Assembly: GCF_054482525.1 (NCBI RefSeq)
Contig: NZ_CM137006.1
Length of the DNA: 64,000 nucleotides
Direction: 5' to 3' (one strand)
In this document: positions 4,126 to 48,296 of the stretch, in pieces
Numbering within the stretch: position 1 is the first letter of the stretch
Layout of the letters: each line of letters begins with the position of its first letter
Made by a program: the position numbers and the translations under genes
Notes under the pieces: model-generated
Told to the model about the DNA's origin: nothing
The model's database searches: none
What the model saw: only the letters and a program-made list of their open reading frames with translations

Positions 4126-4937
4126 TGTCCGACCAGCAACAACCGCCAGTTTATAAAATTGCGCTGGGCATTGAGTACGACGGCAGTAAGTATTACGGCT
4201 GGCAACGGCAGAACGAAGTCCGCAGTGTGCAGGAGAAGCTGGAAAAGGCGCTCTCCCAGGTGGCGAACGAACCGATCACCGTCTTCTGCGCCGGGCGTAC
4301 TGACGCAGGGGTACACGGTACCGGGCAGGTTGTGCATTTCGAAACGACCGCGCAGCGCAAAGACGCTGCGTGGACGTTGGGCGTAAATGCGAATTTACCT
4401 GGTGACATCGCCGTGCGTTGGGTTAAAGCTGTACCTGATGATTTTCATGCCCGATTTAGCGCCACGGCTCGCCGTTATCGCTACATCATCTACAATCATC
4501 GGCTGCGCCCGGCGGTACTGAGTAAAGGGGTAACCCATTTTTACGAACCGCTGGACGCTGAACGGATGCATCGGGCTGCGCAATGCTTGCTGGGCGAGAA
4601 TGATTTCACCTCGTTCCGTGCGGTGCAGTGCCAGTCCCGAACCCCGTGGCGCAACGTTATGCATATTAATGTCACGCGTCACGGTCCTTATGTGGTGGTA
4701 GATATCAAAGCGAATGCCTTTGTACATCATATGGTCAGGAATATTGTCGGCAGCCTGATGGAAGTCGGTGCCCACAACCAGCCGGAGAGCTGGATAGCAG
4801 AGTTGCTGGCGGCAAAGGACAGAACGCTGGCGGCAGCAACGGCAAAAGCGGAAGGGCTGTATCTGGTCGCGGTGGATTACCCTGACCGGTATGATCTTCC
4901 AAAACCGCCAATGGGCCCGCTATTTCTGGCGGACTAA
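4125..4937 (+). CDS. truA: tRNA pseudouridine(38-40) synthase
   Basis: 270 aa; start overlaps usg stop (TAATG-type junction); recognised TruA sequence ([22 protein letters not shown] catalytic Asp motif). Confidence 0.95.
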
Positions 4938-44399: not shown

Positions 44400-44698
44400 T
44401 CCCCTTACAACATGGACTGATCCTCGCGGCAATCTTATTCGTTCTTGGCTTAACTGGTCTGGTTATCCGTCGCAATCTGCTGTTTATGCTGATTGGTCTG
44501 GAAATCATGATTAACGCCTCTGCGCTGGCCTTTGTGGTCGCCGGAAGCTACTGGGGCCAGACCGACGGTCAGGTGATGTATATTCTCGCCATCAGCCTCG
44601 CGGCGGCAGAAGCGAGTATCGGCCTAGCGCTGCTGCTGCAACTTCACCGTCGTCGCCAGAACCTGAACATCGATTCAGTAAGTGAGATGCGCGGATGA
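44396..44698 (+). CDS. nuoK: NADH:quinone oxidoreductase subunit K
   Basis: 100 aa, three TM helices; ATGA overlaps with nuoJ and nuoL. Confidence 0.95.
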
Positions 44699-46536
44699 AC
44701 ATGCTTGCCTTAACCATTATTTTGCCATTGATTGGCTTTGTCCTGCTGGCGTTCTCCCGTGGGCGCTGGTCTGAAAACGTCTCGGCGATCGTTGGCGTTG
44801 GCTCTGTAGGCCTGGCGGCACTGGTAACTGCCTTTATTGGCGTCGACTTCTTCGCTAACGGCGAGCAGGCATACAGCCAGCCGCTGTGGACATGGATGTC
44901 GGTAGGCGACTTTAACATCGGTTTTAACCTGGTGCTGGACGGCCTGTCGCTGACCATGCTCTCGGTGGTCACTGGTGTGGGTTTCCTTATTCACATGTAC
45001 GCCTCCTGGTATATGCGCGGTGAAGAGGGCTACTCTCGCTTCTTCGCTTACACCAACCTGTTCATCGCCAGCATGGTAGTTCTGGTGCTTGCCGACAACC
45101 TGCTGCTGATGTACCTCGGCTGGGAAGGCGTGGGCCTGTGCTCCTATCTGCTGATCGGTTTCTATTACACCGATCCGAAGAATGGCGCAGCGGCAATGAA
45201 AGCGTTCGTCGTGACCCGTGTGGGTGACGTCTTCCTCGCTTTCGCGCTGTTCATTCTTTACAACGAACTGGGCACCCTGAACTTCCGCGAAATGGTGGAA
45301 CTGGCACCAGCGCACTTTGCTGACGGCAATAACATGCTGATGTGGGCGACGCTGATGCTGCTGGGCGGTGCGGTCGGTAAATCTGCGCAGTTGCCGTTGC
45401 AGACATGGCTTGCCGACGCGATGGCGGGCCCGACGCCTGTCTCCGCGCTGATCCACGCCGCAACGATGGTAACCGCGGGTGTCTACCTGATCGCCCGTAC
45501 CCACGGCCTGTTCCTGATGACGCCGGAAGTTCTGCATCTGGTGGGCATTGTTGGGGCGGTTACGCTGCTGCTGGCCGGTTTTGCGGCGCTGGTACAGACC
45601 GACATCAAACGTGTTCTCGCTTACTCTACCATGAGCCAGATTGGCTACATGTTCCTCGCGCTTGGCGTACAGGCATGGGATGCGGCGATTTTCCACTTGA
45701 TGACTCACGCGTTCTTTAAAGCGCTGCTGTTCCTGGCATCCGGTTCCGTCATTCTGGCCTGCCATCACGAACAGAACATCTTCAAGATGGGCGGTCTGCG
45801 TAAATCTATTCCGCTGGTTTATCTCTGCTTCCTGGTGGGCGGCGCAGCACTGTCGGCACTGCCGCTGGTCACTGCGGGCTTCTTCAGTAAGGATGAGATC
45901 CTCGCGGGTGCGATGGCGAATGGTCATATCAATCTGATGGTGGCTGGTCTGGTCGGTGCGTTTATGACCTCGCTCTACACCTTCCGTATGATTTTCATCG
46001 TCTTCCACGGAAAAGAACAAATTCACGCTCACGCCGTGAAAGGGGTAACTCACAGCCTGCCGCTGATTGTGCTGCTGATCCTTTCCACCTTCGTTGGCGC
46101 ACTGATTGTACCGCCGCTGCAGGGCGTGCTTCCGCAAACGACGGAGCTGGCGCACGGCAGCATGTTGACCCTGGAAATTACCTCTGGTGTGGTCGCGGTG
46201 GTCGGCATTCTGCTGGCAGCCTGGCTGTGGCTGGGTAAACGTACTCTGGTGACCTCCATCGCCAACAGTGCGCCGGGCCGTCTGCTGGGCACCTGGTGGT
46301 ACAACGCCTGGGGCTTTGACTGGCTGTACGACAAAGTGTTCGTCAAGCCGTTCCTGGGTGTTGCCTGGTTGCTGAAACGCGATCCGCTGAACTCAATGAT
46401 GAACATCCCGGCTGTCCTTTCCCGCTTTGCAGGTAAAGGTCTGCTGTTAAGCGAGAACGGTTATCTGCGCTGGTATGTGGCATCCATGAGCATCGGTGCG
46501 GTCGTGGTGCTGGCACTGTTGATGGTACTGCGTTGA
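44695..46536 (+). CDS. nuoL: NADH:quinone oxidoreductase subunit L (antiporter-like)
   Basis: 613 aa polytopic membrane protein. Confidence 0.95.
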
Positions 46537-46556
46537 GTTGTTGGCTGAGTGAATAT

Positions 46557-46575
46557 ACCCGGCGTTGCGCCGGGT
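46557..46575 (+). other. GC-rich tri-loop hairpin in the nuoL-nuoM intercistronic spacer
   Basis: ACCCGGCG-TTG-CGCCGGGT, 8-bp stem, 21 nt after the nuoL stop; no U-tract. Confidence 0.5.
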
Positions 46576-46766
46576 CTGTGAACTAAGAATAAATTTTAGG
46601 TAACTGTTCCTGAAGTACAGGCGTCATCGGCGAAGTCAGACCGGATACCGCCAGCGCACAGCAACCGGAGCGTACTTAAGTACGTGAGGATTGCGAGCAC
46701 TGCCGGGATTCGGGCTGGCGAGTGAGATAGCCTGAGCAGGAGTAAATATAAGGGACATACTTAGCT

Positions 46767-48296
46767 ATGTTATTACCCTGGTTAATACTAATCCCCTTTA
46801 TCGGCGGCTTCCTGTGCTGGCAGACCGAACGCTTTGGCGTCAAGGTGCCGCGCTGGATCGCGCTGATCACCATGGGATTGACGCTGGCGCTGTCGCTGCA
46901 ACTGTGGTTGCAGGGCGGTTATTCACTGACGCAATCCGCCGGAATTCCGCAGTGGCAGTCTGAATTCGACATGCCGTGGATCCCGCGTTTTGGTATCTCT
47001 ATCCATCTCGCCATTGACGGGCTATCGCTGCTGATGGTCGTGCTGACCGGTCTGCTCGGTGTGCTGGCGGTACTCTGTTCGTGGAAAGAGATCGAAAAAT
47101 ATCAGGGCTTCTTCCACCTCAACCTGATGTGGATCCTGGGCGGCGTTATCGGCGTGTTCCTTGCCATCGACATGTTCCTGTTCTTCTTCTTCTGGGAAAT
47201 GATGCTGGTGCCGATGTACTTCCTGATCGCACTGTGGGGGCATAAAGCCTCTGACGGTAAAACGCGTATCACGGCGGCAACCAAGTTCTTCATTTACACC
47301 CAGGCGAGTGGTCTGGTGATGTTGATCGCCATCCTGGCGCTGGTTTTTGTTCACTACAATGCGACTGGCGTCTGGACCTTCAACTATGAAGAGCTGCTGA
47401 ATACGCCAATGTCTAACGGCGTGGAATATTTGCTGATGCTGGGCTTCTTCATCGCGTTTGCGGTGAAAATGCCGGTGGTACCGCTGCATGGCTGGCTGCC
47501 GGATGCGCACTCACAGGCTCCGACCGCCGGTTCCGTGGACCTCGCGGGGATCTTGCTGAAAACCGCCGCTTACGGTCTGCTGCGTTTCTCCCTGCCGCTG
47601 TTCCCGAACGCGTCGGCAGAGTTCGCGCCAATCGCTATGTGGCTGGGTGTTATCGGCATCTTCTACGGTGCGTGGATGGCCTTCGCCCAGACCGATATCA
47701 AACGTCTGATCGCCTACACCTCGGTTTCCCACATGGGCTTCGTGCTGATTGCTATCTATACCGGCAGCCAGTTGGCCTACCAGGGCGCGGTAATCCAGAT
47801 GATTGCGCACGGCTTGTCGGCGGCGGGTCTGTTTATTCTCTGCGGTCAGCTTTATGAACGTATCCATACCCGCGACATGCGCATGATGGGCGGTCTGTGG
47901 AGCAAGATGAAATGGCTGCCAGCACTGTCACTGTTCTTTGCGGTGGCAACGCTTGGGATGCCTGGCACCGGTAACTTCGTCGGCGAATTTATGATTCTGT
48001 TCGGCAGCTTCCAGGTTGTCCCGGTGATTACCGTTATCTCTACCTTTGGGCTGGTCTTTGCATCTGTTTATTCGCTGGCGATGTTGCATCGCGCTTACTT
48101 CGGTAAAGCGAAAAGCCAGATTGCCAGCCAGGAACTGCCAGGGATGTCGCTGCGTGAGCTGTTTATGATCCTGTTGCTGGTGGTGCTGCTGGTACTGCTG
48201 GGCTTCTATCCGCAGCCGATTCTGGATACCTCGCATTCCGCGATTGGCAATATCCAGCAGTGGTTTGTTAATTCCGTTACTACTACAAGGCCGTAA
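46767..48296 (+). CDS. nuoM: NADH:quinone oxidoreductase subunit M (antiporter-like)
   Basis: 509 aa; follows a 230-nt spacer after nuoL. Confidence 0.95.
   Translation: MLLPWLILIPFIGGFLCWQTERFGVKVPRWIALITMGLTLALSLQLWLQGGYSLTQSAGIPQWQSEFDMPWIPRFGISIHLAIDGLSLLMVVLTGLLGVLAVLCSWKEIEKYQGFFHLNLMWILGGVIGVFLAIDMFLFFFFWEMMLVPMYFLIALWGHKASDGKTRITAATKFFIYTQASGLVMLIAILALVFVHYNATGVWTFNYEELLNTPMSNGVEYLLMLGFFIAFAVKMPVVPLHGWLPDAHSQAPTAGSVDLAGILLKTAAYGLLRFSLPLFPNASAEFAPIAMWLGVIGIFYGAWMAFAQTDIKRLIAYTSVSHMGFVLIAIYTGSQLAYQGAVIQMIAHGLSAAGLFILCGQLYERIHTRDMRMMGGLWSKMKWLPALSLFFAVATLGMPGTGNFVGEFMILFGSFQVVPVITVISTFGLVFASVYSLAMLHRAYFGKAKSQIASQELPGMSLRELFMILLLVVLLVLLGFYPQPILDTSHSAIGNIQQWFVNSVTTTRP

Follow-up and report, generated by a model that had tools for sequence, protein, structure and literature searches.

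We consider it likely that the 230-nt spacer between nuoL and nuoM is a composite of three parts: a hairpin in a slot where related genomes carry REP elements, one copy of a dispersed repeat, and the conserved ribosome-binding region of nuoM. The repeat copy would be a MITE-like insertion that is tolerated and gives the nuo mRNA a stable hairpin, and the spacer would owe its length to this composite nature, the repeat copy included. The window, that is, the whole stretch of 64,000 nt that was analysed, comes from E. coli, and many complete genomes, among them O157:H7 strains and E. coli C, match the region at 100% identity. The features are as follows.

44695–46536, + strand: nuoL, an open reading frame annotated as nuoL in 100%-identical E. 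coli records
46534–46536, + strand: nuoL stop codon TGA, the end of that reading frame
46557–46575, + strand: hairpin 1, GC-rich, 8 bp with a 3-nt loop, found by folding, 21 nt 3' of the nuoL stop
46618–46735, + strand: copy of the dispersed imperfect-palindrome repeat, from BLAST paralogues, covariance model R1 and folding
46619–46743, + strand: segment that distinguishes the 'filled' alleles (window, L133, Enterobacter L025), which have it, from the 'empty' ones (K-12, Klebsiella), which lack it, from a comparison of five spacers
46665–46690, + strand: apex motif CCGGAGCGTAC-TTAA-GTACGTGAGGA, which folds and recurs on unrelated arms in many phyla
46671–46684, + strand: the palindrome, apical helix and TTAA loop of the element, from folding
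46750–46769, + strand: nuoM ribosome-binding region, AAGGGA, a 12-nt spacer and ATG at 46767, from the sequence
46767–48296, + strand: nuoM, an open reading frame

With the end of nuoL at 46536 and the start of nuoM at 46767, the spacer occupies 46537–46766, and its exceptional length, which an earlier note had pointed out from the letters alone, was confirmed: the remaining nuo junctions in the window overlap or measure at most 93 nt, the largest being nuoB-nuoC. The two structures named in that note, a GC-rich tri-loop hairpin after the nuoL stop (46557–46575, 8 bp) and the 14-bp palindrome CGTACTTAAGTACG (46671–46684), are both present. Folding of the whole spacer gave -89.1 kcal/mol (z -4.58), a value equalled in 0 of 200 shuffles. 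Perfect 14-bp palindromes numbered four in the window against 3.6 ± 2.0 in shuffles, and the excess of structure over chance is due to the larger fold, not to the palindrome itself. The spacer is structured, as the earlier note held, and is kept in some relatives; the identity of the palindrome as part of a repeat had been missed.

The palindrome is not a free-standing site but the tip of an imperfect hairpin of about 118 nt (46618–46735), one copy of a low-copy dispersed repeat. Its assignment as the apical helix and loop of the repeat follows from an alignment of four copies and from the consensus hairpin of 17 copies. In a BLAST comparison with 5,426 complete E. coli genomes, spacer positions 82–199 (46618–46735) were 77–80% identical to other loci in essentially every genome, with one to eight places per genome (median 4–5). 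Three paralogous loci were read, pheM leader-pheS, pyrH-frr and qseE-qseG, and these copies and the nuoL-nuoM copy align across the full hairpin. The consensus of 17 enterobacterial and Aeromonas copies comprises 37 pairs, of which 19 show compensatory double changes, and its ends read AGGCGT...ATAGCCT. The apex is built from a CC/GG clamp, a GGA/GA internal loop, a 6-bp helix closed by G.U, and the loop. Covariance model R1 scored the window copy at 69.6 bits (E 4e-21) and found it as a single copy in the window. The homology seen by BLAST covers 118 nt; with terminal mini-hairpins the window copy reaches about 136 nt and the pheM-pheS copy about 141–151 nt. The 136-nt element folds at -56.1 kcal/mol on the + strand (z -4.2) and at -47.1 kcal/mol on the - strand, and nuo mRNA has the sense of the better-folding strand.

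The element shows the generic traits of a MITE, namely several dispersed copies, a self-complementary body, and presence or absence at a precise site. No clear target-site duplication was found at the element; its boundaries at 46619–46743 are good to a few nt, and the CCTGA-like words that flank both ends also belong to the terminal mini-hairpins. A direct repeat, GAGTGAATATA (46547–46557) and GAGTAAATATA (46740–46750), matching at 10 of 11 positions and 193 nt apart, brackets hairpin 1 together with the element. Its reading as the target duplication of a larger insert was rejected, with about 0.2 such pairs expected by chance and the left copy not kept in L133. An association of the repeat with phages was likewise rejected, with only 24 matches in 2.9 million viral contigs.

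In some copies a nested module of about 70 nt is inserted immediately 3' of the apex, at 557–628 of L133 (the nuoL-nuoM copy of a second enteric species) and in Yersinia, Photorhabdus and Citrobacter (L010/L048, L051, L054). Its junctions, GAGGATG / ATTCGC...TTTTGTGT / GAGCAC, mark the same insertion point, and it contains TCGCTCACCC, which is found also in the ERIC consensus. Insertions like this one are reportedly carried by ERIC as well, according to Wilson and Sharp in 2006.

As to the identity of the family, it is probably RSA of E. coli K-12, a name that we take from copy number and length. RSA appears in the K-12 GenBank record with six copies of 150/151 bp (PMC5172473, Table 1), and a reference carried in PMC3751351 indicates that it was also published as BEE95. 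Both are low-copy dispersed intergenic palindromic repeats, with four to six places per genome here against six RSA copies in K-12, and the RSA length compares with 118 nt (BLAST) to about 141–151 nt (the pheM-pheS copy with its mini-hairpins) for the present family. The nuoL-nuoM copy, however, is missing from K-12 and therefore cannot be one of the six annotated RSA copies. The RefSeq K-12 record has no repeat feature at pheM-pheS, and literature searches returned no usable descriptions of RSA/BEE95 or of nuoL-nuoM transcript processing.

The element also resembles ERIC (IRU), which is likewise a long imperfect-palindrome intergenic repeat, transcribed within operons, with a central inverted repeat at the hairpin tip. 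The apex has the same layout in both, GGAGC(G/U)UAC-loop-GUA(C/A)GUGA, with a compensatory swap from G-C to U-A in the apical helix. The ERIC core aligns with the window element (GGAGCGTACTTAAGTACGTGA against GGAGCTTACATAAGTAAGTGA) at 18 of 21 positions, a match reached by 2 of 2000 shuffles, and R1 detects a genuine Yersinia ERIC at 20 bits (E 0.0014). Full membership in ERIC was nevertheless rejected: against the 127-nt E. coli consensus (PMC2759123, Table 1a) only this 21-nt core aligns, the global alignment is poor, and there is no significant similarity between element and consensus outside the core. The termini differ too, TATAC...GTATA flanked by TA in ERIC against AGGCG...GCCT here, and the copy number of the present family is far below that of ERIC. 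Delihas's RU-3 was ruled out as the family, RU-3 being a REP pair.

No Rfam family was found for the window copy, whose matches were miRNA-like hairpin noise and a sub-threshold hit to sX9, nor for the copies of other phyla. The sX9 model (RF02228) scored 16 bits on the window copy (E 2.6, - strand), below its gathering score of 44, whereas a Polaromonas relative with the same apex scored 46.6 bits, above it. The model is restricted to one half of the hairpin, apex to 3' end, and its strand is the opposite of that in nuo mRNA. sX9, a Xanthomonas sRNA, is among the most abundantly annotated bacterial 'sRNAs' (PMC9029176) and, being so abundantly annotated, behaves as a repeat. Judged by these alignments and model scores, the repeat is a distant relative of Rfam sX9 and is related to ERIC at the apex only. 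On the Polaromonas copy, a ylbH-leader match was discarded (30.6 bits, sub-threshold and driven largely by an adjacent terminator).

The spacer occurs in E. coli in two forms. The 230-nt allele was found in 723 of the 5,426 complete genomes and an allele of 163–165 nt, of the K-12 type, in 4,699–4,700; together they account for all 5,423 genomes that have the junction. The K-12 allele contains one REP and the 169-nt spacer of Klebsiella pneumoniae a REP pair, and R1 with filters off found the element in neither. The earlier note had proposed a comparison across relatives, which gave a divided answer. The element occupies precisely the same point, with unchanged orientation, in Enterobacter sp. 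Bisph1 (L025) and in L133, whose nuo genes are 87–91% identical to those of the window, but about 87% of complete E. coli and K. pneumoniae are without it. Between the window and Enterobacter the hairpin arms differ in a compensatory manner (CAG/CTG to CTG/CAG and CCG/CGG to GTG/CAC, among others), and the hairpin is kept by these changes. L133 differs in two respects: the extra module of about 70 nt follows its apex directly, and a REP stands in place of hairpin 1. Empty and filled alleles share their flanks (...GAATTCGTTGAAAATC.GGTCCTGA..GGAC / TTTWACAAGG...ATG), and the element sits between GGAC and TTTWACAAGG. The insertion allele is old enough to be common to several species; the majority of E. 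coli lack it.

L133 shares the left arm and the final 60 nt of the spacer with the window at 100% identity, against nuo genes that differ by about 10%. A comparison of the window with K-12 (L002) gave 95.8% identity over nuoM nucleotides 1–142 (46767–46908), against 98.5% mid-gene. These values suggest, as the simplest reading, that homologous recombination carried the filled haplotype from one species to another, with a tract that ends inside nuoM; alternatively, the identity of the window and L133 could reflect purifying selection rather than recent recombination.

Two further arrangements were seen. The O157:H7 strain TR01 (L129, NZ_CP033605.1 3159273–3159502) has a mosaic 230-nt spacer, of which the first and last 43 nt are of the K-12 type and the middle 144 nt, including the element, of the window type; this would be either a recombinant of the two alleles or an artefact of assembly or polishing. 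In L131 (1–700, a Logan contig with a 95%-identical NuoM), a galactarate-dehydratase-like gene with SAF/GD_AH domains, not nuoL, lies upstream of nuoM, either by rearrangement or through a chimeric assembly. A decayed apex in K-12 was also considered and rejected. The stretch CCGAAGAGAATTTTCTGTCGTGAGAATT matches the pheS copy at 20 of 28 positions (equalled by 45 of 3000 shuffles), but it is conserved unique flank, AGAATTCGTTGAAAATC; the idea was dropped because AGAATTCGTTGAAAATC also adjoins the element in L133 and Enterobacter and because R1 was blank in K-12.

The first part of the spacer is hairpin 1, with stem 46558–46564 / 46568–46574, an additional A46557-T46575 pair and the loop TTG (-16 kcal/mol, z -4.2). 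Its sequence is unique, and it occupies the slot of REP elements in relatives. Hairpin 1 is itself not significantly REP-like: compared with the REP sequence (RU-3, PMC2759123, Table 1b), including the GCCTAC/GTAGGC end, it scored 14, equalled by 215 of 1000 shuffles. The K-12 and L133 alleles scored 28–30 at the same slot, reached by none of 1000 shuffles, and carry true REPs. A stable GC-rich hairpin lies 20–80 nt 3' of the nuoL stop in all five orthologous spacers, although the sequences are unrelated: the window and Enterobacter each have a unique hairpin, K-12 and L133 one REP (in either orientation) and Klebsiella a REP pair. The slot is either a landing pad for REPs or a place where a hairpin is wanted, and the position kept in all five spacers despite differing sequence hints at a function for the hairpin-1 part. 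The large element, at about four times the length of a REP and with unrelated sequence, differs from the REP/BIME class.

The third part is the ribosome-binding region, with AAGGGA at 46750–46755 and 12 nt from the AAGGG core to the ATG; the start region of nuoM is unstructured (z -0.24). The weak Shine-Dalgarno that the earlier note associated with this junction was partly borne out, but it is a conserved property of nuoM rather than of this allele, the same AAGG(A/G)A and spacing being found in K-12, Klebsiella and Enterobacter.

The apex of the element has a distribution far beyond the enterobacteria. The core CCGGAGCGTA-N4-7-GTRCGTGAG was sought in 100,044 species genomes, and the scan returned at least 120 loci, against an estimated chance expectation of about 17 matches in the whole collection. 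In nearly all of the matches listed (L009–L128), from at least five phyla, the exact apex CCGGAGCGTAC-N4-7-GTACGTGAGGA tips a rod-like hairpin of 100–180 nt with arms that are unrelated between taxa. Among the matches listed were Yersinia, Photorhabdus, Citrobacter, Enterobacter, E. albertii and Aeromonas; Polaromonas, Rhodoferax and Burkholderiales; and Azospirillum, a Rickettsiaceae MAG and another alphaproteobacterium. Also among them were a Syntrophus MAG with at least 13 copies, a Desulfobacterales MAG, Ca. Scalindua with at least three copies, a Bacteroidales MAG and Bacillus fonticola, as well as a MAG of Clostridiales Family XIII, whose contigs are broken by its more than 60 copies of the apex.

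One explanation that competes with a mere tolerated insertion is that the conserved apex (CCGGAGCGUAC-loop-GUACGUGAGGA) is itself the functional unit, an RNA or single-stranded DNA recognition site for a factor common to most bacteria, of which the nuoL-nuoM copy would be a working instance. We regard this as possible but doubtful. It would account for an identical apex on unrelated arms across Proteobacteria, Planctomycetes, Bacteroidales and Firmicutes, yet the invariance of the core is partly a product of the search design, since the database scan required it. Below the apex the helix covaries: in the 28-sequence cross-phylum alignment, from which R1 was built, the value was 0.258 against 0.084 when shuffled, reached in 0 of 500 shuffles, and sliding the partners destroyed the signal. 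R1 in turn recovered further copies with variant cores as well as genuine ERIC, which keeps the loop-helix-loop layout with its G-C to U-A compensatory swap (consensus in PMC2759123), a point in favour of a functional apex.

Placement is not random either. Among the matches listed, outside the Clostridiales MAG, the element abuts a stop codon, with 0–7 nt from stop to element and 45–60 nt from stop to core (L009, L011–L013, L015–L018, L021–L023, L026, L032–L043 and L046–L058). At these copies the gene's mRNA is the strand complementary to the motif in at least 32 cases against three opposite, within 110 nt and among the matches listed. The abutted genes, again among the matches listed, include groEL, ffh, infB, nusA, gnd, upp, serC and speB and are often highly expressed housekeeping genes. 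Against a working role at nuoL-nuoM, the window copy is atypical in each respect, being in the minority orientation and abutting no stop codon; its distance from the nuoL stop is 82 nt, and about 30 nt separate its end from the nuoM ATG. The terminal inverted repeat was seen to contain the stop codon in Scalindua and Syntrophus (TAGTGG..., GGTTGAACC, TAATTCC...).

In 69 of 77 non-redundant elements (L003–L133 and the window), the more stable fold belongs to the strand with CCGGAGCG...GTGAGG rather than to its complement; the difference averages 11.4 kcal/mol and reaches about 35 kcal/mol in Clostridiales, and the motif strand therefore carries the G.U pairs. This asymmetry also speaks for a functional apex. 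In most taxa the better-folding motif strand is antisense to the abutted gene, the opposite of a transcription- or replication-linked mutation bias. In local GC skew, gene and replication orientation are confounded. The E. coli copy is also dispensable, and the conservation of the apex could instead reflect the needs of the element's own mobilisation.

In Bacillus fonticola (L029 47–709; L030 1–1246), the element was observed at the 3' ends of rrn operons in the order 23S-5S-Bacillaceae-1-element-Bacillaceae-1, in the sense of the rRNA. A published primer shows that the same core occurs in the 5' exon of B.h.I1, a group IIC intron found where rrn operons B, D, F and G of B. halodurans end (PMC1702495). 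The right arm of the apex, AGTACGTGAGGAT (46679–46691), matches the sarcin-ricin loop AGTACGAGAGGAC (23S, L030 396–408) at 11 of 13 positions, and the GUGA of the apex is, like the sarcin-ricin GAGA, a GNRA sequence. Sarcin-ricin mimicry was nevertheless rejected: the match of AGUACGUGAGGAU to 23S AGUACGAGAGGAC (11 of 13, with 0.05 expected across rRNAs) is post hoc, the structural context differs, and the leading A varies among copies.

We tentatively propose that the 26-nt apex (CCGGAGCGUAC-N4-7-GUACGUGAGGA) defines a superfamily of rod-like hairpin repeats in many phyla, in which the arms would evolve freely and the apex would be held by a shared partner and placed after stop codons in one orientation; at present we would sooner bet against this proposal than for it. 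Such a superfamily may unite RSA, the beta- and gammaproteobacterial sX9, ERIC as a diverged branch, and high-copy families without a name so far, in Clostridiales, Syntrophus, Scalindua, Bacteroidales, alphaproteobacteria and at Bacillus rrn ends.

Turning back to the composite spacer with its tolerated insertion, which we prefer, a plausible course of events at the nuo operon can be outlined. A GC hairpin would stand right after the nuoL stop, where related genomes have REPs; about 80 nt further on, one low-copy repeat of about 120–150 nt with an ERIC-like apex would have entered a precise point in the conserved nuoM leader; and the conserved ribosome-binding region of nuoM would follow. The element may be a MITE-like insertion or its relic, tolerated in a permissive intercistronic gap and dispensable for complex I. 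Because it lies inside the operon, it would be transcribed, giving a nuo mRNA with two very stable stem-loops.

REP/BIME elements form stable RNA hairpins that shield upstream mRNA from 3' exonucleases. ERIC affects mRNA through RNase E (PMC2229807), and the Correia elements of Neisseria do so through RNase III (PMC10969869). The latter (Correia/NEMIS), MITE-like hairpins that share transcripts with genes and are cut by RNase III, offer a model for an insert that alters the fate of an mRNA; their sequence is unrelated, however, they belong to another phylogenetic group, and their IHF site and TA duplications are not seen here. By analogy with REP, ERIC and Correia, the two hairpins of the nuo mRNA could act as barriers to 3'-to-5' exonucleases or as entry sites for RNase III or RNase E. 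The stability of the nuoA-L segment relative to nuoMN might then shift modestly, and stoichiometry would not be set through a promoter or attenuator. An effect of the element on mRNA stability or processing is plausible on this analogy.

A stronger version of this idea holds that the spacer is a selected intercistronic regulatory RNA, whose two hairpins tune the stability or processing of nuoA-L against nuoMN and in this way the supply of subunits. We think it improbable. The strong folding of the spacer and its hairpins, the hairpin position kept after nuoL across five species or alleles, and the element kept at its site in three lineages with compensatory changes all agree with it, as does the comparison of the window with L133, in which the spacer is better conserved than the genes beside it. 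This last point, however, fits a recombination tract equally, because the 5' end of nuoM is unusually divergent between the E. coli alleles (95.8% against 98.5%). Selection for regulation is harder to reconcile with the 87% of E. coli, and Klebsiella, that are without the element, and with paralogues of the element that sit in unrelated operons. NuoL, NuoM and NuoN are complex I subunits in a 1:1 ratio, which leaves no obvious need for differential expression. The suggestion of the earlier note that the junction sets nuoMN stoichiometry, as a nuo-specific regulatory device, does not hold for an element missing here in most E. coli and in Klebsiella pneumoniae; with equimolar subunits and 87% of strains lacking it, a dedicated stoichiometry device is unlikely and a near-neutral tolerated insert is the likeliest reading.

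An internal nuoMN promoter or a transcription attenuator or terminator, also raised in that note and in keeping with a long gap that contains hairpins, is very unlikely, as a consensus -35/-10 scan (16–18 nt spacing; plain sigma-70 consensus matching, with other sigma factors outside its reach) found no sigma-70-like site on the + strand in 46300–47000, and the spacer has no intrinsic terminator (GC hairpin and T-run), with no T-run 3' of either hairpin and the sole candidate at 46975–46987, within nuoM. The single match of that scan was on the - strand, with 0.5 expected by chance. Coding potential was also considered; only short - strand reading frames of 34–65 aa run through the repeat, and these were taken as spurious.

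The locus is ordinary, a strain-variable copy of a known kind of enterobacterial repeat and not a nuo-specific regulator. For the nuo operon this is of little consequence: the long spacer is an insertion allele, and it would be wrong to take it for a dedicated complex I regulator. The natural pair of alleles, 230 nt with the element and 163 nt without it in near-identical operons, could serve as a gauge for the effect of a hairpin on a polycistronic mRNA. More generally, candidates for intergenic "structured RNA" should be checked against repeat families first. The part that deserves further study, more than the locus, is the cross-phylum apex. The same apex on unrelated arms after stop codons in distant phyla suggests one functional core common to ERIC, RSA and sX9-type repeats, and this shared core could be used as bait for the partner of such repeats. 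If the proposed superfamily is true, the 30-year-old question of the purpose of ERIC-type repeats would become approachable through one small motif.
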